IMG/VR virus record: IMGVR_UViG_3300023231_000002
Coordinates: 1-36,717 of that record
Strand: one strand, 5' to 3'
Source of the DNA: a virus
DNA length: 36,717 nucleotides
Positions 2,316-36,508 of the stretch are shown here, in pieces; position 1 is the first letter of the stretch, and every line of letters begins with the position of its first letter. Position numbers and translations under genes: made by a program. The notes beneath the pieces are model-generated. The model was not told the DNA's origin. It saw only the letters and a program-made list of their open reading frames with translations, and ran no database searches.

Positions 2316-2651
2316 CTACTTTAGGAGTTCTAATAAATAGTTTGCGTGACAGGGAGAAGAAAGAGAACAAAAGCAAGCGAGGTTTTTACCCTTCAATTCG
2401 TTTAAATCTAATTTCTTTAATCCTATTTGTCCGTCAATCCAACAGCTATAACATTCAACGGCTTTTTCGGCAGCACCTTCTTTTTCTGTGTATAATATAC
2501 CACAGTAATTGCCATCCTTATCTCTTACAACCCAATAACCAGCCTCAAATAAAACCTTGAAGGGATTTCCCCATTTAGTGCCTCTATTAACACATTTAGT
2601 ATTTTCAGGTAGTTTAAATCCTTTTGTTCTCTTTCTTTGTACTCGTATCAT
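2316..2651 (-). CDS. DUF4326 domain protein, 111 aa
   Basis: N-terminal RKRTKGFKLPEN...NRGTKWGNPF and C-terminal KGKNLACFC...PCHANYLLELL match the DUF4326 pattern as I remember it. Confidence 0.7.
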   Translation of the reverse strand: MIRVQRKRTKGFKLPENTKCVNRGTKWGNPFKVLFEAGYWVVRDKDGNYCGILYTEKEGAAEKAVECYSCWIDGQIGLKKLDLNELKGKNLACFCSLSSPCHANYLLELLK

Positions 2652-3045: not shown

Positions 3046-3330
3046 TTAATTATTACTCTGGATGTATTTTGGCACACCATGCTCTCTGTGAGTTTCGCTG
3101 GCTGTGCTCATCACATATATCCGGCCCAAATCAATCATTTTTTTGAGGAGCTTGCCATCTGTTGTTTTTGTGAGAATCAGCAGCTTGCTCTCATCACCCT
3201 CAAAAATCATGTAGGGCTTTTGATAATAAACATCACAATGGGGATCAGATTTTTTGAGCCCGTTTGAGAAATCACCCAAATGGGCTTTTCTCCAATAGAT
3301 TTCTGTTTTTATCAGATCAGGATAAATCAT
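3046..3330 (-). CDS. Hypothetical protein, 94 aa
   Basis: ORF-track ORF 3046..3432 trimmed to the internal ATG at 3330 (MIYPDLIK...). Its first 34 codons are simply the translation of the 10-bp iteron array. Confidence 0.5.
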   Translation of the reverse strand: MIYPDLIKTEIYWRKAHLGDFSNGLKKSDPHCDVYYQKPYMIFEGDESKLLILTKTTDGKLLKKMIDLGRIYVMSTASETHREHGVPKYIQSNN

Positions 3331-3368
3331 GATTTTTTCAGTTTTTAAAAGTTTGGAGCAAAAAAGTG

Positions 3369-3445
3369 AATCCAACAAACCTACAAACCAACAGCATCCA
3401 ACAGAAAACGGCACTAATCCAACAGAATCCAACAGAATCCAACAG
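3369..3445. repeat. Iteron array: six copies of AATCCAACAG (three perfect tandem copies)
   Basis: Perfect copies at 3416, 3426 and 3436. Copies matching 9/10 at 3369, 3385 and 3395. The array lies in the 218-bp gap downstream of the primase-helicase gene and is followed by a very AT-rich tract (3446..3548). Confidence 0.75.
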
Positions 3446-3548
3446 TGATTTGATAGTTATATTATTGATTTTTAAAAACTTAAGATATTTGTAGGTCTGT
3501 AGGTTTCGTTTTTTCATTTTCACTAGCTTTTATGATATTTTTTAAAAA

Positions 3549-6500
3549 TCATCCATTAAATGGAATCTCATTATTTTCCCCACTTCCTCCACCCTGCAAG
3601 CGATTCCCCAAATCATTAAGGGCTTTCTGAGGCTCAAATCTCCCATCACCCTCTGGATTTCCTGAATTTTTGTAATTAGTGGATGCTGTTGGTTTCCCCA
3701 TGTTTATCAGGTCAATCCCCAGCTTTTTGTTGGATAGCACCATGGCAGATGTGATTTTTCGGGCAGAATTTGGCCGAGTGAATGCTGTGGATTTATAAAT
3801 CCCCACATAGGCTGGGCTGTTTTCAAGGTATTTTAAAAGGCTCTGCTTGTTCATTCCATTCCTTCCATACTGCTGGCGATATGAGCGCAAATATTCAGCA
3901 TGGATTTCATTTAATCGAATGAAAAGCATCTCCTCATGGCCACAAGGGAATTTCTGTTCAATGCCTTTCCTTTTTACTTTTATAGATGGCCCCACCACAA
4001 ATTCATTTTTAAAATGCCACCCCTCCTCCAGCTGGCCATTGTCTGCCAGATATAGCACAATATTCCAAAACTCTCCCAGAGCATCAGAATTCTGTATGAG
4101 AGCAGAGATTTCCCCCACTTGAGAGGCACACCATTCCCGGATATATTTCTCATCCCATGGCAGCTTAAATCTCTGACTGATAAAAATCCCACATGCTGCC
4201 ACAGCAGCATAATTCCTGAGCACCCTATCTATATAATATATTTTTTCTTTATCTAGCTGGAGCCCAATCTCACTCATCACTTTTCCAAAAAGAGCACTGT
4301 ATCCTTTAGAAAATTGATCTCTGAGCTTTAAAATTTCAACTATCATCCCTGTGAGCTCATGCTCTGCTCCATTAATATCATTTTTTAGCATCTGATAGGC
4401 TGCTTTTTGAGCCTCAGAGAATTCTGAGGAGCTTTCAAATTCCAACAGCAAACATCTGGAAAGGGCAGAATTATCATCCCGAGTGCTCAAATATTGCCCT
4501 GTGAGCACAATAGCTGAATTATACTGCTGAGTTTCTGTTTTTTTCTTACTTCCTCCCTTCCCTCTCTGCCTGCCTGCTCCATCATAGGCTGCCTTGATAG
4601 CTTGGAACCTCTCCTCTCTCATTAAAGCATCATCAAACTCATCCAAATTCACCACACAGTTTTTATACTGATCCAGATATTTTGAAAAAGCAAAATCTGT
4701 GGCTTGATGAACATTCAAAGGAGGTATGAGCCCATTGTGAGGAGCAAAAAAAACAGATACCAGAGATCTGGCAAATTCAGATTTTCCAGATCCTTTTGGG
4801 CCAAAGCAGCTCATCATTGGAGTTTTGCCCACAGCTTTATTCACCAAATCTTTAAACAGGCCCACCAAACAGAATGCAGCTCCAGCCATAGCTTTCCCCG
4901 GATAGCACTCCTCTAATAGTTCACACCATTTCTCAAAATTAATTTTTGGTTCTACATATTTAAGGTACCTATCATTTGAATAGTGATCATCTGTGCCAGA
5001 TGCCTCCAGATAGATTTTGCTTATGGCTGGGGAGAAATATCTTTTATCCTCCAGATCCACAATCCCCATCTCTGAAAACGGAACCAGCGTTCCATTGTGC
5101 CATGCCATATTGAACCAAGAGAAAAATCCATTTTGCTGCCATCCCAAGCTCTCCAGCTCCATGCATGATGGGAAATTCCCTGATATTTTACTCAATATCC
5201 TCATGAGCTCTGATCCATTCCCTGCAAAAAGAAAGTTTCCCTGATCATAACAAACCTTTTTAAAAGCCTCCAGAGAAACCAGAGCAGAACTCTCAATATC
5301 AATCACCTGCTGATTGAATCCATTATCAATCTCAATCAATCTTTTGTTATTATCAATATTCATGATGTGAAAAAATGGCTTTACAATAAAATTGCTCACA
5401 TTCACTCCATCTTTCCCATTCTGCTTTTGAAAATAGTATCCTGTTTTTTCCTTCTCAATCAGCTCATAAAATCCCCACTTGATAAACTCCCCCTCATCCA
5501 CCCCCACTGGCAGAGCTCTTTGATCCTGTTTCAAAACCTGATGGCCAGCCTTTCCTTTTTCAATCCTTGAAAGTTCTTTTTGAAATATAGACGCACTCAC
5601 TTTGAGCTTCTTTGCAATCTGCTTGGAGTATCTATCTCTCACAATATCACTGGGCAATAAAAGCAAAATCTCACAGATACTTTCTGCTGCATTTGCCAGC
5701 TCCATTGGATTATCCCCAGCAGCTGCCCAATATTCAGCAGCTGCCCACAAAACAGCATCTTGAGAGCAGGCATTTAACTCAATGGAACCACCCCCAGAGA
5801 GGATTTTATCTGCATCTTTTCCTCCCTCGGGGATTGATACCTGAATTTTTGAAAATCCGGCCTCAATACAGGTGGGAATATCTTTTAAAATGGATTTTCT
5901 CCCTGGCCCATCATCATCTTTCATGATATAGATGGCATCCGTATATCTCCGGGCCAGTTTAGCCTGCTCTATTGTGAAGGAAGTGCCGGAAGGGGCCACA
6001 GCTTGAGGATGCCCATGCTGATGGCATGAAATCACATCATGATAGCCCTCCACCAATATAAAAAATGGGATCTGTTTCTGAGCATTCAAAACTTGATGCA
6101 AACCAAACAGCACCCGGCTTTTATTATAAACAATACTTTCATGGGAGTTGAAATATTTCACATCCCCATCCTCCAGAGCTCTCCCTCCAAATCCCACAAT
6201 ATTATCCCGCTCATCATAAATGGGATAAATTGTTCTATTTCTGAAAAAATCAAAATTCTTTGAATTCTTTGTGCTGCAAAGCCCCAGCTCTTTAGCCAGC
6301 AGATAATCCTCTGGATGATCATTTATCAATTTATCAGTGATGAATCTCCATCCATCTGGAGCAAATCCAATCAGAAACTGATCAGCAGTTTCCTGATCCA
6401 CCCCTCTTTTATCTCTGATATATCCAGCCCCTGCATGATCAGCCATCTCCCAATTCTCAGCAATTTCCTTGTGATAGGTGTGAGCAATCCTGTTGATGAG

Positions 6501-6851
6501 CTTGAGCATGGCCTGCTTTTTATCCTTTTTCCCCTTTTGCTCCTCCACATCCACATCCTCCAGCTCAATTGAGATATTGTATTTATCAGCCAGCCAAGTG
6601 ATGGCCGTTGGATAATCCATTTTTTCATGCTCCATCAGAAAAGTGATGGCATTTCCCTTTTTATCACATCCAAAGCATTTAAAAATCCCTTTTTTCTCTA
6701 AAACTGAAAAGCTCGGAGTTTTCTCCCCGTGGAAAGGGCAGCAAGCTTTATTTTTTTTGAGTGATATAAAATGGCCCACCACCTCAGAAATGGAAATTCT
6801 GGATTTTACCTCACTGATTGTTTTTTCTGAAATCATTTTTTCCTCCCCCAT
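3549..6851 (-). CDS. DNA primase (CHC2 zinc finger + Toprim) fused to a P-loop helicase-like ATPase, about 1100 aa
   Basis: CHC2 finger: CCPFHGEKTPSF...FKCFGCDKKGN. Toprim: ILVEGYHDV ... MKDDDGPGRK. Walker A: CFGPKGSGKSEF. Walker B: VVNLDEFDD. An alternative start ATG at 6836 forms an ATGA overlap with the upstream stop. Confidence 0.9.
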   Translation of the reverse strand: MGEEKMISEKTISEVKSRISISEVVGHFISLKKNKACCPFHGEKTPSFSVLEKKGIFKCFGCDKKGNAITFLMEHEKMDYPTAITWLADKYNISIELEDVDVEEQKGKKDKKQAMLKLINRIAHTYHKEIAENWEMADHAGAGYIRDKRGVDQETADQFLIGFAPDGWRFITDKLINDHPEDYLLAKELGLCSTKNSKNFDFFRNRTIYPIYDERDNIVGFGGRALEDGDVKYFNSHESIVYNKSRVLFGLHQVLNAQKQIPFFILVEGYHDVISCHQHGHPQAVAPSGTSFTIEQAKLARRYTDAIYIMKDDDGPGRKSILKDIPTCIEAGFSKIQVSIPEGGKDADKILSGGGSIELNACSQDAVLWAAAEYWAAAGDNPMELANAAESICEILLLLPSDIVRDRYSKQIAKKLKVSASIFQKELSRIEKGKAGHQVLKQDQRALPVGVDEGEFIKWGFYELIEKEKTGYYFQKQNGKDGVNVSNFIVKPFFHIMNIDNNKRLIEIDNGFNQQVIDIESSALVSLEAFKKVCYDQGNFLFAGNGSELMRILSKISGNFPSCMELESLGWQQNGFFSWFNMAWHNGTLVPFSEMGIVDLEDKRYFSPAISKIYLEASGTDDHYSNDRYLKYVEPKINFEKWCELLEECYPGKAMAGAAFCLVGLFKDLVNKAVGKTPMMSCFGPKGSGKSEFARSLVSVFFAPHNGLIPPLNVHQATDFAFSKYLDQYKNCVVNLDEFDDALMREERFQAIKAAYDGAGRQRGKGGSKKKTETQQYNSAIVLTGQYLSTRDDNSALSRCLLLEFESSSEFSEAQKAAYQMLKNDINGAEHELTGMIVEILKLRDQFSKGYSALFGKVMSEIGLQLDKEKIYYIDRVLRNYAAVAACGIFISQRFKLPWDEKYIREWCASQVGEISALIQNSDALGEFWNIVLYLADNGQLEEGWHFKNEFVVGPSIKVKRKGIEQKFPCGHEEMLFIRLNEIHAEYLRSYRQQYGRNGMNKQSLLKYLENSPAYVGIYKSTAFTRPNSARKITSAMVLSNKKLGIDLINMGKPTASTNYKNSGNPEGDGRFEPQKALNDLGNRLQGGGSGENNEIPFNG

Positions 6852-7279
6852 GCTTTAACCATTGAAACCACTGCTCTCAAAAACCCCAAAACCCTCTCTT
6901 TAAATGATGGCCTCCTCCTCCTCACACTTTTTGCCTGTGGGGATTTTTTCTCATGAAAATCTTTACCTTTCCTTTTCTCCTCCACAGGCAGATTCATGAT
7001 GGCCTGCACATAAGCATCCACAGCTCCCCATCCATGAGATTTCAAAAGCCTCATCATTTCTTTTTCGTGATCTATATAATCAGAAACCATGGCCATATAA
7101 TATTTACTTGATATGATGGCCACCTCTTTTCCCTTCACTTTTATGCTTTTCATCCCCCTATTCAGAAGTGCCTCCCCCAGCATTGACCTCCGGCACAGAA
7201 TAGCCTTTCCCTTTTGATCTGTTTTTAAAACTAAAGGCAAGTTTTTTGAATAGGCTCTAATTTTCCCCCGCTTACTCAT
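6833..7279 (-). CDS. Hypothetical basic protein, 148 aa (replication module)
   Basis: The ORF-track start at 7336 is TTG. The ATG at 7279 (MSKRGKIRAY...) overlaps the upstream stop by 8 nt. No motif recognised. Confidence 0.5.
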   Translation of the reverse strand: MSKRGKIRAYSKNLPLVLKTDQKGKAILCRRSMLGEALLNRGMKSIKVKGKEVAIISSKYYMAMVSDYIDHEKEMMRLLKSHGWGAVDAYVQAIMNLPVEEKRKGKDFHEKKSPQAKSVRRRRPSFKERVLGFLRAVVSMVKAWGRKK

Positions 7280-7691
7280 GGCCCACCTCCAATCCTTTGC
7301 TTTTCTTATCAAGGATCTCATCAATTTCTGAAACAATTAATTTGATTGAATCATAAAGAGAAAAATCCCTTTGGATTACTTTTCTGCTGTGAATAACAGT
7401 GGCATGATCTTTCCCTCCATAGAATCTCCCAATGTCCTGAAATGGCTGAATGGTGTACCTACAGCAGAAAAACATGGCCATCTGTCTGGGGAATAGAATT
7501 TTTCTATCTCTACTCTTGATTTTCACCTCCTCGGAGGTGATTCCAAAATAATTGCACACCACCTCATTGATTCCCTCAATTTCCAGCTTGTAGGGAGTGT
7601 TTTTTCCTCTAGTGCCTGTTTTGATGGCCAGCATTGCAATCATATCAATGCTGTTTGTATCTATCTTACTATTACTAAATTCTATTATCAT
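7272..7691 (-). CDS. DnaA C-terminal (domain IV) DNA-binding protein, 139 aa
   Basis: FPRQMAMFFCCRY...IGRFYGGKDHATVIHSRKVIQ aligns by eye with E. coli DnaA domain IV (RPRQMAMALAKELT...[22 protein letters not shown]). There is no AAA+ domain. Confidence 0.8.
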   Translation of the reverse strand: MIIEFSNSKIDTNSIDMIAMLAIKTGTRGKNTPYKLEIEGINEVVCNYFGITSEEVKIKSRDRKILFPRQMAMFFCCRYTIQPFQDIGRFYGGKDHATVIHSRKVIQRDFSLYDSIKLIVSEIDEILDKKSKGLEVGHE

Positions 7692-8663: not shown

Positions 8664-8833
8664 TCTTTTTGTGATATATTATTTTGACGGTCACTAAACA
8701 ATAACTGAATAGTTACCAAACTATCACAAAAGTACATTTTTAATTGAATTATGAACCTTTTACAGTACTTAAATAAATATTAACCGTAAATAAATACAGA
8801 ATTATCTGATCATAAACGCTGATTTTTAAGGCT
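8664..8833. promoter_or_regulatory. Divergent control region between the early operon and the recombinase gene
   Basis: 170-bp AT-rich gap. It holds a perfect 10-bp inverted repeat, ttttgtgata (8667..8676) / tatcacaaaa (8722..8731). Minus-strand TACTTTTG (8734..8727) matches the Bacteroidota -7 box TAnnTTTG and overlaps the right arm. Confidence 0.4.
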
Positions 8834-9469
8834 ATGGAAACAAAAACCCTCAAAACCCTCAAAACCTATGTGATCCGAGCCATAAAAAAAGAGCAGATGG
8901 CTCAAAATCCATTTGATTCCTATAAGGTGAAAGGGCAAAAAGTGGAGATGGTGTATCTCACCAGAAGAGAAGTGGCCCGGCTGGAGGAGCTTTATGATAC
9001 CCTCACAGATTTATCATTGAAAAGAACCCTCCAGAGCTTTTTATTTTGCTGCTTTTGTGGAGGAATAAGAGTGGGAGATCTCCCTTTTTTAAACCAGCAC
9101 AATAAATCATTGAGTGAGATTCACTATGTGCCCAATAAAACAAGAGAATCCTCCTCCAAAGTGATCAGAATCCCCATCAATAAAAAAGCCAGAAAACACA
9201 TCAATCCAGCCGGGAAAATTGTGCCCACCTACTGCTCACAAGTGATGAATAGGCATTTAAAAACATTGGCTCAATTGGCTGAAATTGAAAAGCCAATCAC
9301 TTTCCATGTTTCCCGCCATACTTTTGCCACCTTATTTCTCCAGATGGGGGGGAAAGTAGAAGTACTAAAAGAGCTCATGGGTCATTCAGCCATCAAATCT
9401 ACGATGCAATATGTGCATGTCACAGATCAGAGCAAGCATTCCCAGATGGATGCCATGGACAATCTCTAA
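8834..9469 (+). CDS. Tyrosine recombinase, catalytic domain only, 211 aa
   Basis: Catalytic signature present: GGIRVGDL (Arg), HVSRHTFAT (H-x-x-R), GHSAIKSTMQYVHV (His...Tyr). The N-terminal arm-binding and most of the SAM-like domain are absent, and the 170 bp upstream cannot encode them. Confidence 0.85.
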   Translation: METKTLKTLKTYVIRAIKKEQMAQNPFDSYKVKGQKVEMVYLTRREVARLEELYDTLTDLSLKRTLQSFLFCCFCGGIRVGDLPFLNQHNKSLSEIHYVPNKTRESSSKVIRIPINKKARKHINPAGKIVPTYCSQVMNRHLKTLAQLAEIEKPITFHVSRHTFATLFLQMGGKVEVLKELMGHSAIKSTMQYVHVTDQSKHSQMDAMDNL

Positions 9470-12168
9470 GTCGCTATCCCAGCCAGCTTTTCCACCTTTT
9501 CCTTTCTGGCTTGTTCATCCTCCAGATCTCTCAATGGCAGATTCACTTTGAATTCTCTTTGCCATTTGTTCATGATAGCATTCTGCTGTTTTATCAGAGC
9601 AATGAGCTCAGATGATCCAGCTCCCGGATCTGCTCCCCCAAAAACTCCACCTTTTTCCATCCTCAGATTCTCAGAGGCCCCTTTGTAGTTAATGCCCGGC
9701 ACTTGTCCAGATTCATTGATGCTCCTTAAAGTAGGCAAAGTGGATGCATTCACAGAATTTTTACGGATGATCATTTCTCCCCCTTCCATCTCTGCTCTCA
9801 CTTGGCCTGTGGATGGATCGATCACTGGCATGCCTCCGCTGGAATGAGAGGGGCCATTTAGCACATCAAACATTCCTCCAGCTGCATATTTCTGGGAGGC
9901 TATCATGGCCACTTGCCCCGCTGTGGATGCCACAATTGCAGGGATGGCAAGCGGGGCCAAAACCCCTGTTTGTGCAGTTGTTTTAGTGATTGCCAAAGCA
10001 CCATTTATCAATGCCTGAGCTATATCAATGCCTTTCTTTTTATTAAAAGCTGCTTTTTGAATTTTTTCTTTTTCCTTTTCATATTCAGCCTCACTGATGA
10101 TTCCAGCATCCTTTTTCTTTTGCAATCCATCCAGCTCCCTTTGCTCATTCCTATCAGCCCCTTGGCTCAATAAAGTGAACCCTGTATCCAGAGCCTCAGA
10201 AAGCATTTCTCTTTTTGCCTCTGCCAGAGCTCTTTGGGATTCCTCCTCTTTTTTTACTTCCTCCTCCAAATAAACCCCATGAGCCTCTGCCCTGCGGGCA
10301 TATCCCTCCAGCATCAATTGATCTTTGACGGCCTCCAGCTCCACAGCACTATCAATCTCCAAAAGATTCTGTGCCTCCAGCCGTTCCATTGTCTGCATCA
10401 TCACCCTATCAGCTGCCCCGGAGGATTCTGGTTTGCTCTGTTTTTTATTGGAAAGCTCCCCAGATATTTCATTGATTTGCTTTCTCAGGGATTCTTTGAG
10501 CTCTGGAGAGATAAATTGATTTTTGAGCAGCTCATTTGATTTTTTGAGCTCCTTTTTCAGCTCTTGAGTACTCATTTGAGAGAATGATTTTGCAGCATTC
10601 CCCCCAGCCGCTGCTGCTGATTCTGTGATTTTAGGATCTTCAAAGAAATGGGCAAATGGCTCTACCACGTCATCCATGAGCTGTGCCACACTATCACCAT
10701 AAGCACCCAAAGCTTCTTTAAAAGCCTCTGTGCCATTGTCCATTTTGAAATCAGAAAGAAAATCAAAAGCAGCTTTTCCCCCTTCGATTAACGCCCTGAA
10801 ACCTGAAATCACAATTTCAATCTGAGTGATGAAAAGTTTCAAGGGGAGCATCAAAAGTTTCACTGCTGTTGTTACAAAATCCAGCACGTTCACCGTTGAT
10901 TCACCCTCATCACTCATGAGCCCCATGGATTCCCCGAGCTCAGAAAACGCATCCTGCAGGCTTGAAAAATTATCTTGAATATCTTTTGTGGCCTCCTGAA
11001 AACCAACCACTATCATGGATATCACATTCACAATGGCCATCAATCCTCCCTCTCCCTCAGAAAATTGCAGAATAAGGCCATCCCATGCGGAGCCCAATAT
11101 TTTGAGCCTGCCATCTAAAGTGTTCAATTGAGTATCAGCCATTTTCTCTGCTGCTCCTCCAGCATCACCAAGGGCCACAGCGAGCTCTCCCACTTTCTCA
11201 CTCTGCTCTGCTAGTACAAGCAAGGCAGCCTGCCCCCTTTCTCCCACCAGATCATTGGCAATGGCCAATCTCTCAGCTGGAGAGGTGGCCTCGTCCAGCG
11301 CTTTTTTCACATTCCCCAGGGATTCAGCCAATGGCTTTCCATCTTTTGAGAGCTCGTTGAATATTTTTTTCAATGATGTGCCAGCCATTGAGCCATGAAT
11401 ACCACTATCAGCAAGTTTTCCCAGCATGGCAGCAGTATCCTCAATGGAAACCCCAGCAGCCCGAGCCAGTGGAGCAGCAGCTTTCATTGACTCTTTCCAC
11501 TTTTCCATATCAAGGCCAGAGGATGAAAAGCTTTTTGCCATCACATCCACCACCCGCTGCATATCTGTGGCCTCAAGGCCAAAAGCCCTGAGTGATGATC
11601 CGGCCACTGTTGCCGCCTCTCCCAGCTCTGTATTGGTAGCAGCTGCCAGAGATAAAGTGGCCTCTGTTACGTTCAAAATTTCTTGCTCACTGAATCCCAG
11701 CTTTGCATATTCTGTTTGCAAATTACTCACCTCCGCAGCAGTAAAGGAGGTGATGGCTCCCAATCTTTTGGAATCAGCCTCCAGAGCCACAATCTCCTCC
11801 CGGGTTTTCCCGAGCACTGAGGCCAGATTGGCCTGAGCTTGCCCAAATTCTTTGATGGTATTAAATGCCCCCCTCAAAACATTAACCAGAGTGGAGATGG
11901 CAAGCAGTGGCCCCAGCTGAGCTTTCATAAAATTGCCAAAGCCTCCCCATGCTTTTCTCATTCCCCCCACTTGCTTTCTGTGCTGATCCAGCACACCCTT
12001 TATTTTGCGGAGCTCCTTCACTTTTCGATTGTAATCATCAGATCCTCTCTCTGCTTTTTTTACTGAATTTCTCAGAGAGTGAAATTCCTTTTCAATGGCC
12101 TTGATATTATCGGCCACCTCTTTGCCATTTATTTTAATGGTGACTTTTCTATTCTCTGTTGCGGCCAT
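9466..12168 (-). CDS. Tail tape measure protein, 900 aa
   Basis: TP901-type tape-measure core recognised (LGAITSFTAAEV...LGFSEQEI...ATLSLAAATNTELGEAATVAGSSLRAFGL...AAPLARAAGVSIEDTAAMLGKLADSGI). Long Ala/Glu-rich helical regions and size fit. Confidence 0.85.
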   Translation of the reverse strand: MAATENRKVTIKINGKEVADNIKAIEKEFHSLRNSVKKAERGSDDYNRKVKELRKIKGVLDQHRKQVGGMRKAWGGFGNFMKAQLGPLLAISTLVNVLRGAFNTIKEFGQAQANLASVLGKTREEIVALEADSKRLGAITSFTAAEVSNLQTEYAKLGFSEQEILNVTEATLSLAAATNTELGEAATVAGSSLRAFGLEATDMQRVVDVMAKSFSSSGLDMEKWKESMKAAAPLARAAGVSIEDTAAMLGKLADSGIHGSMAGTSLKKIFNELSKDGKPLAESLGNVKKALDEATSPAERLAIANDLVGERGQAALLVLAEQSEKVGELAVALGDAGGAAEKMADTQLNTLDGRLKILGSAWDGLILQFSEGEGGLMAIVNVISMIVVGFQEATKDIQDNFSSLQDAFSELGESMGLMSDEGESTVNVLDFVTTAVKLLMLPLKLFITQIEIVISGFRALIEGGKAAFDFLSDFKMDNGTEAFKEALGAYGDSVAQLMDDVVEPFAHFFEDPKITESAAAAGGNAAKSFSQMSTQELKKELKKSNELLKNQFISPELKESLRKQINEISGELSNKKQSKPESSGAADRVMMQTMERLEAQNLLEIDSAVELEAVKDQLMLEGYARRAEAHGVYLEEEVKKEEESQRALAEAKREMLSEALDTGFTLLSQGADRNEQRELDGLQKKKDAGIISEAEYEKEKEKIQKAAFNKKKGIDIAQALINGALAITKTTAQTGVLAPLAIPAIVASTAGQVAMIASQKYAAGGMFDVLNGPSHSSGGMPVIDPSTGQVRAEMEGGEMIIRKNSVNASTLPTLRSINESGQVPGINYKGASENLRMEKGGVFGGADPGAGSSELIALIKQQNAIMNKWQREFKVNLPLRDLEDEQARKEKVEKLAGIAT

Positions 12169-12540
12169 TTATTTGAGTTTCATTGATTGCGTTGTTAAAT
12201 CAGCAGATATTTTCTGCAAATCATCCCCCAGCTGGGGCACTGTTTTAGAAAGGCCATTACCAATCCAATTGCTCCCTTTTATTCCTTTTGAATAATATGA
12301 AACACTCCCCCTCTCAATGGCCCCGCTCTCCACACCATGATGCAGGATGTATCCATACCTTTTCACATCTGTAGAAATTCCCCATGGCTCATCACCATCT
12401 TTTCTCACTTTGGTTTTCATGCCCCGGATGAGCTTACCTGATTTTTTGTGACCATTGGATGATGCCGCAGCTTTTAATGCTGCGTTGATTCTGGGGGCAT
12501 GTTTTTCTGCCACTCTGGAAAGCTCTTGATCAATATTCAT
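12169..12540 (-). CDS. Hypothetical virion protein, 123 aa (weak HK97 gp10-like resemblance)
   Basis: SGKLIRGMKTKV...YGYILHHGVE loosely resembles the gp10-family pattern. Its stop abuts the tape-measure start. Confidence 0.3.
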   Translation of the reverse strand: MNIDQELSRVAEKHAPRINAALKAAASSNGHKKSGKLIRGMKTKVRKDGDEPWGISTDVKRYGYILHHGVESGAIERGSVSYYSKGIKGSNWIGNGLSKTVPQLGDDLQKISADLTTQSMKLK

Positions 12541-13335: not shown

Positions 13336-13430
13336 AGGAGGCTCGTTTGATTAAACCAAACCTACTGAAATTCAATCCATTTTTATGGACAGCAGCCAGT
13401 TATGGAAACTAGAAACTAAAATTTAATTAT

Positions 13431-17828: not shown

Positions 17829-17904
17829 TTAACAGTTTGAGCTGGGGAATATACCCAATAAATTCTGGTAAACTTCAAAAACCTCTCCAAAATTAAACAG
17901 CATG

Positions 17905-26521: not shown

Positions 26522-26753
26522 GAATCAAAAATAAGAAACAAGGGATGGAAAATATGGACAACAGGCCAAAAGCATGATTTCATCAAAAAATGGATTCAAT
26601 CTGGGGCAGATTTTAAAATATCAACCCTCTGAAAGCTAGATTTTTAAAGTCGTTTCTAGCAATCCAGAGGAGGAGTGTAAAAACAAAGTCCACCCCATGC
26701 CCTGTTGAGAGATGGGAATTCTACACAAAAAAAAATAGGTTATATGAGGGGAT

Positions 26754-31952: not shown

Positions 31953-33107
31953 TCAGTGAATTGATGATGTGCCGTGAGCTTGATCTGCTCTCTGATTGTG
32001 GGCTAATTGAGCTGATGGATCTGGTTCTGGTGGTGGATCATCCCCCGAATTAATACTGGCACCGGGAGCAAGCTTTTCAAGCTTAGCACAAACAAGAGCA
32101 TGATCTGATTTTAAGGATGTAGCAGTGGCCACAATCTCAGCCACCTCCACTCCCAGCACAGCAGCTGCATCAGTGATGGTTTGGTTTGAAACTTTCAGAG
32201 CTTGCTCTGACGTTGAAAGTGATGCTTTTACATCACTCAAATCTGAGGCAGTGATCACATCACCCTCTTTTAAAGCAGCTGTGATTTCCTCTAAAATAGA
32301 GGCCTTTTCATCAGCACTCAATGCTAAAATTTTGCCACTCTCTAAAGCAGCCTTTAATGATTCAAAATTCATTTTGGATTCTGGTTTTGGTTTTTCTTTT
32401 GGTGTTAATGCAGCTCTAATCATAGCAAACCAATTTTGCTTTGCCTCTGGGGCTTTCATTGATTGGATATGCTGTGCTGCAATGGATGCATAGGTTTTCC
32501 CCTTAAAAGCTGAGGCACTTGGTACCCCCTCAACAGCTATAGGCTCTACTATATCCACTAAACTGGCAGCAGCAGCCTCATCTGAGGTGAAAAAATTATC
32601 CTTGTAATTTAAAAAAGTGGTGGTGGCATCCTCTACTGGCTGGCCTGTTTTCGAGGATATCAAAAGGGCCATGGATTTATCAAAAACATCCAAGGTTTTT
32701 GCCATCTCTCTATGATCAGCAGCATTGCCATAAACTCCTGATGAGGAATTGTGAATCATTAAAATGGCATTTTCTGCCATGTGTACTTTATGCCCTGAAA
32801 TAGCTATCAATCCAGCCATGCTCATTGCCACTCCATCAATCCACGTATGTACCTCAGATGAGGATTGAGCTATTGCATTTGAAATAGCAATCCCCTCCCC
32901 CATTGAGCCTCCATAGGAGTTGATTCTCACATTGATGAGAGAGAACTCCTTTTCCAAAGCTTTAAACTCCTCTGTGAATTTTTTGGCAGTATTGATCTCT
33001 TGATAAGTGTCATAATCAAACCCACCAATATCACCATAAAGCAATATTTCAGCAGATCCATCTGCTGCATTCTTTATAATATCCCAATATTGCTGGCTCA
33101 TAAGCAT
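31953..33107 (-). CDS. ClpP-family prohead protease fused to an Ala-rich scaffold-like C-terminal region, 384 aa
   Basis: ILLYGDIGG...INSYGGSMGEGIAISNAI...IDGVAMSMAGLIA...ILMIHNSS follows the ClpP/S14 pattern, with Ser in the xMSMAG motif and His in MIHN. The C-terminal 170 aa are A/E/K-rich and helical. Confidence 0.85.
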   Translation of the reverse strand: MLMSQQYWDIIKNAADGSAEILLYGDIGGFDYDTYQEINTAKKFTEEFKALEKEFSLINVRINSYGGSMGEGIAISNAIAQSSSEVHTWIDGVAMSMAGLIAISGHKVHMAENAILMIHNSSSGVYGNAADHREMAKTLDVFDKSMALLISSKTGQPVEDATTTFLNYKDNFFTSDEAAAASLVDIVEPIAVEGVPSASAFKGKTYASIAAQHIQSMKAPEAKQNWFAMIRAALTPKEKPKPESKMNFESLKAALESGKILALSADEKASILEEITAALKEGDVITASDLSDVKASLSTSEQALKVSNQTITDAAAVLGVEVAEIVATATSLKSDHALVCAKLEKLAPGASINSGDDPPPEPDPSAQLAHNQRADQAHGTSSIH

Positions 33108-35881: not shown

Positions 35882-36508
35882 TCAAAACAATTTGGTTTGC
35901 ATTTGTGTCTCTCTCAGCCATTTCATTGCTTTATTATAATATTCTGTATCACGTTCACAGGCAGTTAAATCAAACTTTTCTTCGTGGCAAGCAATCGCTA
36001 TACTTCCGCTTCCTAAATGCGTATCTAATATTTTTAATCCATCCTTGCCAAACCTGTCTAATATCCATCTATACAAATACACTGGCTTTTGTGTTGGATG
36101 TATTCTTTCAAGTCCATCTTTAGCATTTGCACCAACCCAACTTTTAGATATTTTACGCAATGCACCATCAAAAGAAGTCCAAGCCAATTCACCATCTGCA
36201 AAATCATTATCCCCAGTTCCTTTATCCCAAAATAACCAAGCCGAAGTAGGTTTTAAATATTCTGTCATATAGTTCCCACCCCAAACAATTTGATTTTTAC
36301 TTACTCTAAATAATTCATCAAAGTATTCTTTGTCTGGTATTTTAGAGTCCCAATCTTCAATACCTCTATATATTTTCTTTTCCCCATTCCCTAACGTCAT
36401 TTTGTTTGCTCCAATCCCATAAGGTGGGTCAACAATAGCCAAATCAAAGTAGTTATCTTCGTATCGTGCCATTAGTTCCATATTATCTTCATTCGTTATT
36501 TTAATCAT
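35882..36508 (-). CDS. DNA methyltransferase (beta-class N6-adenine / N4-cytosine, DPPY type), 208 aa; orphan
   Basis: Motif IV DLAIVDPPYGIG, then IHPTQKPV, then AdoMet motif I LDTHLGSGS, in the order typical of the N6_N4_Mtase family. No nuclease gene adjacent. GGGAGG lies 8 nt upstream of the ATG. Confidence 0.9.
   Translation of the reverse strand: MIKITNEDNMELMARYEDNYFDLAIVDPPYGIGANKMTLGNGEKKIYRGIEDWDSKIPDKEYFDELFRVSKNQIVWGGNYMTEYLKPTSAWLFWDKGTGDNDFADGELAWTSFDGALRKISKSWVGANAKDGLERIHPTQKPVYLYRWILDRFGKDGLKILDTHLGSGSIAIACHEEKFDLTACERDTEYYNKAMKWLRETQMQTKLF

Follow-up and report, generated by a model that had tools for sequence, protein, structure and literature searches.

The SaPI Rep protein is both helicase and initiator, and recognises penta- or hexanucleotide iterons through a winged-helix domain at its C-terminus (PMC9371898; PMC7581432). 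In SaPI origins 6–12 of these short iterons follow the rep ORF directly, around an AT-rich centre with at least two iterons per side running in opposite directions, and in SaPI5 the primase and Rep genes (pri, rep) are fused (PMC9371898; PMC7581432). [quoted passage not shown]

The viral DNA analysed here (the window, 36,717 nt) represents a whole genome in circularly permuted form, and 13 contigs of about 36.7 kb, drawn from several sources, carry it. An earlier note on this sequence had pointed to a 218-bp gap, 3331–3548, in which short repeats and an AT-rich tract beside a replication gene formed a candidate replication origin. The flanking gene ends agree with that gap, which lies between the primase-helicase gene, 3549–6851(−), and an ATG at 3330, with all local genes on the minus strand. 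The candidate origin is likewise supported by the anatomy of 80 related loci and by the Rep/Cch fold predicted for the adjacent protein, and since the characterised SaPI Rep/Cch-type origins have the same layout, we consider with good confidence that 3369–3504, with its flanks, would be a vegetative (theta-type) replication origin of the SaPI kind. The locus resembles the SaPI type (SaPIbov1 Rep, Rep1, PriRep5) in the features recognisable at the level of sequence: a Rep/Cch helicase fold matched over its full length, short iterons directly 3′ of the rep ORF (nine here, 6–12 in SaPIs), an AT-rich centre and opposed arms with at least two iterons on each side. The fusion of primase to Rep is a further likeness to SaPI5. 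The coordinates of the features are collected in the table.

Table. Features of the iteron locus and the adjoining genes (positions in the window; cores are hexamers of the form TGTWGG).
Feature	Position	Strand	Remarks
First gene downstream of the array	3046..3330	−	94 aa from ATG
Right (downstream) iteron arm	3369..3445	−	Seven TGTWGG cores
Right-arm cores	3372, 3380, 3388, 3398, 3419, 3429, 3439 (+ strand positions)	−	Read on the minus (gene-sense) strand
Possible promoter −7 box	3376..3383	−	TAGGTTTG, built from the last two iterons
AT-rich spacer between the opposed arms	3446..3489		44 nt, 86% AT
Left (upstream) iteron arm	3490..3504	+	TGTAGGTcTGTAGGT, two cores opposing the right arm, 8-nt spacing
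Second AT-rich stretch	3505..3548		From the left arm to the primase-helicase stop codon
Primase-helicase	3549..6851	−	1100 aa
Possible auxiliary iteron copies	3680..3735	+	Within the 3′ part of the primase-helicase gene, which is poorly conserved
Rep/Cch-like (DUF927-type) helicase half	3702..5504	−	Residues ∼450–1050; Walker A GPKGSGKS
DnaG-type primase half	5532..6851	−	Residues 1–440; CHC2 zinc ribbon, catalytic core, Toprim; Pfam E=1e-30

The repeats described in the earlier note were recovered in full. Three perfect head-to-tail copies of the 10-mer AATCCAACAG occupy 3416–3445, and the three copies matching at nine of ten positions are found at 3369–3378, 3385–3394 and 3395–3404. Allowing up to one mismatch brings the matches of the 10-mer in the window to 14, where 4.1 would be expected, a number reached by none of 100 shuffles, and six of these matches fall within 77 nt. 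The clustering at 3331–3548 is far beyond chance. In parallel, TRF reported a tandem array at 3368–3445 with a period of 10. An isolated extra exact copy of AATCCAACAG at 2436–2445(+), ∼1 kb from the array and inside the DUF4326 gene 2316–2651(−), is probably a chance occurrence.

The TGTAGGT direct repeats and their inverted partner were also found where they had been described, with TGTAGGT present twice at 3490–3504 and the inverted CCTACA at 3380–3385. The TGTAGGT pair is, however, no separate feature of the AT-rich tract but the left arm, inverted, of one iteron system whose core is written as TGTWGG, because TGTTGG (the main repeat on the minus strand) and TGTAGG differ at one core position. 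The window holds 32 TGTWGG hexamers, about the number expected from composition, and nine of them lie within 3372–3503, against an expectation of 0.18 per 200 nt. These nine cores, 45–177 nt past the primase-helicase stop codon, form two unequal arms, seven in one orientation and two in the other, with the AT-rich spacer between them. Past the stop codon, the layout in gene order is thus an AT-rich stretch of 44 nt, two cores, the 44-nt spacer, seven opposite cores, 38 nt (3331–3368) and the ATG at 3330. Six of the right-arm cores are of the CTGTTGGATT type and one is TGTAGG, and their spacings in gene order (10, 10, 21, 10, 8 and 8 nt) place five of the seven in a 10/21-nt helical phase.

Two further copies may serve as auxiliary iterons within the primase-helicase gene itself, where ∼0.2 would be expected. 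The first, at 3680–3695, is a perfect 16-nt reverse complement of 3385–3400, the second, at 3726–3735, reads TTTGTTGGAT, and both share the orientation of the left arm. Such in-gene copies are not general among the relatives (13 observed, 7.4 expected).

The AT-rich DNA of about 100 bp that had been reported next to the repeats is the most AT-rich 100 nt in the 36.7-kb window (3449–3548, 80% against 59% overall). That AT-rich DNA beside the iterons would provide an unwinding element stands as proposed; the whole 100 nt is a less fitting candidate than the 44-nt spacer between the arms, 3446–3489, which we infer to be the likely DNA-unwinding element. Only 0.14% of the 44-nt windows across the whole window are as rich in AT as the spacer. 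At the position equivalent to the second AT-rich stretch, a terminator-like hairpin is present in some relatives (L023, L054 and Ingeline).

Public gene calls begin the downstream gene at TTG 3432, within the repeats. The ORFs drawn over the array had been taken as mere translations of the repeat. The 10-nt period does not keep step with the codons, and the arrays of the relatives lie in a stop-free frame of at least 50 codons, in any frame, in only 9 of 38 lineages; judged from their reading frames, these arrays are non-coding. Scans of the array region for tRNA genes and Rfam families gave no match and single-strand folding gave no unusual structure, which together rule out an RNA gene or a structured single strand as the identity of the region. 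The cumulative GC skew of the window, a check named in the earlier note, is monotonic because the genes are all on one strand, and is uninformative on the origin.

The upstream protein joins two recognisable halves. A family profile matched Aquifex DnaG (2au3) with E=5e-113, and by its sequence the N-terminal 440 residues are a bona fide bacterial DnaG primase. The helicase half, which includes a C-terminal domain at residues ∼926–1050, was examined through an AlphaFold2 model of residues 450–1100 (pLDDT 85.9). Foldseek gave SCCmec Cch (5dgk, E=1.6e-15) as the best PDB match, followed by SaPIbov1 Rep (8tch, E=1.8e-13), both spanning the full length over ∼620 alignment columns, with SaPI5 PriRep5 and PriRep1 next in line; 7ola and 7pds were also among the matches. 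As modelled, residues 450–1100 are homologous in structure to SaPIbov1 Rep and SCCmec Cch along their entire length. At the sequence level Cch was the only PDB match of this half, with a family-profile E-value of 2.5e-9 against 5dgk; as a single sequence the protein scores E=0.0037 against Pfam DUF927 and misses the cut-off, and PF06048 is carried by some of the homologues. In the isolated model of the C-terminal domain (pLDDT 87.7) the elements follow one another as helix, hairpin, helix, helix, hairpin, a succession compatible with a winged helix. A fold search of this model against the PDB gave nothing better than E=0.24, the matches to PadR and LmrR having a probability of ∼0.1 or less.

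The nearest proteins in a collection of 5.8 billion sequences are 34–36% identical to the primase-helicase. A scan of viral contigs with the single protein gave no match, and an alignment-based scan returned 80 related loci with primase-helicases 25–39% identical. Near-identical contigs of the same phage carry an identical region and therefore give no conservation signal. The strongest 6-mer cluster of the whole 8–13-kb locus starts 0–600 nt past the primase-helicase stop codon in 42 of the 80 loci and 600–3000 nt past it in a further 19, giving an array in 61 of 80. Clusters of at least seven copies elsewhere in the locus were found in none of the 80; the top clusters elsewhere have 4–6 copies, which is noise level.

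Dereplication at 80% identity left 38 lineages carrying the array, with 6–14 copies over 115–246 nt, and in 30 of these it lies within 600 nt of the stop codon. The recurring layout consists of 2–3 copies (8–10-nt spacing), an AT-rich gap of 35–90 nt and 4–9 copies (10–11-nt spacing), the inverted group being either the first group or a terminal one. The largest gap of the array is more AT-rich than its locus in 36 of the 38 lineages (mean 76% against 56%). A left arm of 2–3 inverted copies at 8–10-nt spacing is seen in L049, L016, L010, L012 and L085. As far as sequence comparison can tell, then, at least 38 distinct phage lineages share this layout behind their primase-helicase genes. Named members of the family are Cellulophaga phage Ingeline and Porphyromonas gingivalis prophages. 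The iterons of L016 and L049 are those most like the iterons of the window; in both loci the primase-helicase match spans ∼1040 query residues, yet no open frame across it is longer than ∼720 codons, which may point to a split, a frameshift or an interruption in the gene.

While position and architecture are kept, the core varies by lineage in ∼15 classes, among them TTCTACA, AACTACA, ACCTACA, GGCTACA, TGTTGGA, TCCCAAC, AGGCGGT, CTTACTT, GACAACA and TGTGGAA. Because the recognition sequence diverges within a retained architecture, the pattern suggests a cis site co-evolving with the protein that binds it. Among twelve window proteins compared with the ORFs of the 80 loci, the primase-helicase alone is a conserved neighbour. 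Iteron similarity correlates with primase-helicase identity at r=0.62, a weak association confounded by shared ancestry. Likewise, with the primase half as internal control, the association of iteron class with residues was higher in the N- and C-terminal domains of the Rep-like half than in the primase half (mean AMI 0.20 against 0.135), a difference that is again weak and confounded by ancestry. The array binder is most likely the C-terminal, Rep/Cch-like half of the primase-helicase.

A different binder had been hinted at, in that the iterons of the origin might be bound by the phage-encoded 139-aa DnaA-domain-IV protein (7272–7691) or by host DnaA. That protein has a strong Bac_DnaA_C match (E=4e-23), and CTGTTGGATT bears a loose likeness to a DnaA box; yet no TTATCCACA-like box with up to one mismatch occurs in 3331–3548, and the 17 one-mismatch DnaA boxes of the window are scattered. 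Moreover, a single one of the 80 related loci encodes a homologue of the protein, compared with the array in 61, and the cores of the relatives, such as TTCTACA, AGGCGGT and CTTACTT, bear no relation to DnaA boxes. The suggested link is thus unsupported, and we regard a DnaA-dependent array as highly improbable; the array should be filed as a SaPI/Cch-type Rep origin and not as DnaA-related. The 139-aa protein, 7272–7691(−), is essentially DnaA domain IV alone, with its sole homologue among the 80 loci in L018, and might act at DnaA boxes as a competitor or a mimic of the host DnaA.

Arrays that start as far as 1–4 kb past the primase-helicase, as they do in some lineages, count against the origin reading, and so does the place of two of them behind an integrase-like gene. 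Phage032a carries a GTTGGA array with the same layout of two inverted copies plus four, 2.1 kb downstream. In Ingeline (L086, Cellulophaga phage Ingeline_1) a GTTCCA array at 9498–9954, 2.4 kb beyond the primase-helicase, comes straight after an integrase-like gene, and a GTTCCA array in L005, at about 12264–12480, also directly follows such a gene, the distances from the primase-helicase in this sub-lineage being 2.4–4.3 kb. The position of these two arrays behind an integrase-like gene suggests that inserted genes can separate the origin module from rep. The same two loci could be read in favour of a recombination site, with the repeats as arm-type or accessory sites of a tyrosine recombinase (attP or a multimer-resolution site), since arm-type sites are short repeats in both orientations. 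The recombinase gene of the window, however, lies 5.3 kb from the array on the other strand (8834–9469(+)), integrase homologues occur in only 11 of the 80 loci and mostly away from the array, and the position of the array tracks the primase-helicase. We therefore give a recombinase site next to no credence.

The recombinase gene 8834–9469(+) encodes a short (211-aa) tyrosine recombinase, which may be an integrase or a multimer resolvase, and is the only confidently annotated plus-strand gene here. A tandem repeat of AAAACCCTC (2.7 copies) lies at its 5′ end, 8843–8866, and the gene converges on the 3′ end of a tape-measure-like gene, 9466–12168, which is the last of the late block, an unusual order. 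The large late ORFs, ∼12500–35300(−), are mostly without PHROG match (688, 533, 560, 466, 331, 320 and 309 aa), and those of them that were also scanned against Pfam gave no significant match; the only recognisable late genes are those for a ClpP-like protease (31953–33107) and the tape-measure-like protein. At 35882–36508(−) the window encodes an N6/N4 DNA methyltransferase domain protein, whose gene adjoins small early genes after the circular wrap.

The array might alternatively serve transcription only, as operator sites for a regulator at the promoter of the genes from 3330 onward. TAnnTTTG is the −7 promoter box of Bacteroidota, a consensus known from Bacteroides promoters, and TAGGTTTG matches it on the minus strand 46 nt upstream of the ATG at 3330. 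The array is intergenic, and −7 boxes in and just after the arrays of the relatives number 20 against 4.4 expected, in 15 of 38 lineages. Promoters are expected in intergenic DNA in any case, though, and in most relatives the box follows the array and is not in it. Furthermore, the Rep-like primase-helicase alone, and no regulator gene, is conserved with the array, and an AT-rich core flanked by two opposed arms, with 7–14 copies in all, is the layout of an origin like those of the SaPIs. Purely transcriptional control is accordingly improbable, and we take the −7 box to mark a promoter that borders or overlaps the origin rather than a competing explanation.

The full −33/−7 Bacteroidota pattern was not found at the locus, and a sigma-70 promoter and terminator scan, with a model ill-suited to Bacteroidota, found nothing. 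Over the window as a whole TAnnTTTG is not enriched (30 against 35 expected). Four intergenic boxes, at 8727–8734, 13357–13364, 17888–17895 and 26526–26533 (minus), lie shortly upstream of minus-strand gene starts and are candidate Bacteroidota-type promoters marking operon starts. The product of the first gene downstream of the array matched no family and lacks homologues in the related loci.

Returning to the origin, the mechanism we propose follows that of the SaPI Rep proteins. The 1100-aa protein joins a DnaG-type primase to a predicted self-loading initiator helicase of the SaPIbov1-Rep/Cch type, and its Rep-like half would recognise the TGTWGG iterons, probably via its C-terminal domain. 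One oligomer would assemble on the seven-copy arm and another on the opposed two-copy arm, the 44-nt, 86% AT spacer between them would melt, and helicase rings would load on the single strands without a separate loader. The fused primase would then lay down the first primers for a host polymerase. Elongation by the host enzyme is presumed because the ORFs scanned included no recognisable polymerase; the PHROG scans of the large late ORFs were empty, and this negative evidence is weak.

We would also mention, as a doubtful extension, that the origin may double as a switch, with Rep loading gating downstream transcription or transcription activating the origin, and with the left (TGTAGG) and right (TGTTGG) arms differing in affinity. 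If so, the last two iterons, which form TAGGTTTG, would tie Rep loading directly to the downstream gene block, and arms of unequal affinity would make helicase loading ordered or asymmetric.

Several differences from the described systems accompany the likenesses. The SaPIs are Firmicute satellites, whereas the present genome is that of a Bacteroidota siphophage (tailed phage), and the sequence identity between SaPI Rep and the helicase half is ∼10–12%. The fused primase is a complete DnaG of the bacterial kind, CHC2 zinc ribbon included, and the arms are unequal in copy number (seven and two) and differ in core (TGTTGG and TGTAGG). While the C-terminal domain of SaPI Rep is a winged helix, the model here is only compatible with one and had no significant PDB match. 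SCCmec Cch, a DUF927 protein and MCM-like ‘active helicase’ (5dgk), is the best structural match of the helicase half, and Cch2 shares a putative iteron origin just past its own gene; the SCC elements, however, are chromosomal cassettes with a separate, unusual primase, in contrast to the phage considered here.

The alpha protein of satellite phage P4 unites primase, helicase and a C-terminal origin-binding domain in one polypeptide, and its octamer iterons, TGTTCACC, lie in repeats near the gene. By this description alpha resembles the protein predicted here, in which primase, helicase and iteron recognition would likewise be combined in one chain. P4 replication needs two separated cis elements, ori and crr, whereas one array is evident in this window. 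The iteron plasmids (RepA, TrfA, pi) and lambda O are also alike in that repeated initiator sites adjoin an AT-rich unwinding element and that initiator and iterons diverge together. They differ in having iterons of 17–22 bp and dedicated WH-domain initiators that recruit the host helicase through a loader, whereas here the cores are of 6–7 nt at 8–11-nt spacing and the initiator would itself be the helicase. Neighbouring ORFs scanned with Pfam and PHROGs included no dedicated WH-domain initiator. A classical iteron replicon of the RepA/TrfA or lambda O type is disfavoured by the 8–11-nt repeat unit together with the lack of such an initiator among the scanned neighbours.

A literature search for earlier descriptions of iteron origins in Bacteroidota phages returned nothing, although their absence is not proven thereby. 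The principle is already known from the SaPIs; the finding is an extension of it, and its value lies in the breadth of the family and in the many specificity classes. In a marine Bacteroidota phage that can hardly be annotated elsewhere, it provides a defensible origin annotation. More broadly, the related loci suggest that the SaPI-type module is widespread in Bacteroidota siphophages of sea water, the human gut and the mouth, Ingeline and the P. gingivalis prophages among them, in which it is fused to a cellular-type DnaG primase. The ∼15 natural pairs of protein and iteron specificity would form a ready data set on how this initiator family reads DNA, and could supply orthogonal replicons for the Bacteroidota, a group poor in genetic tools.
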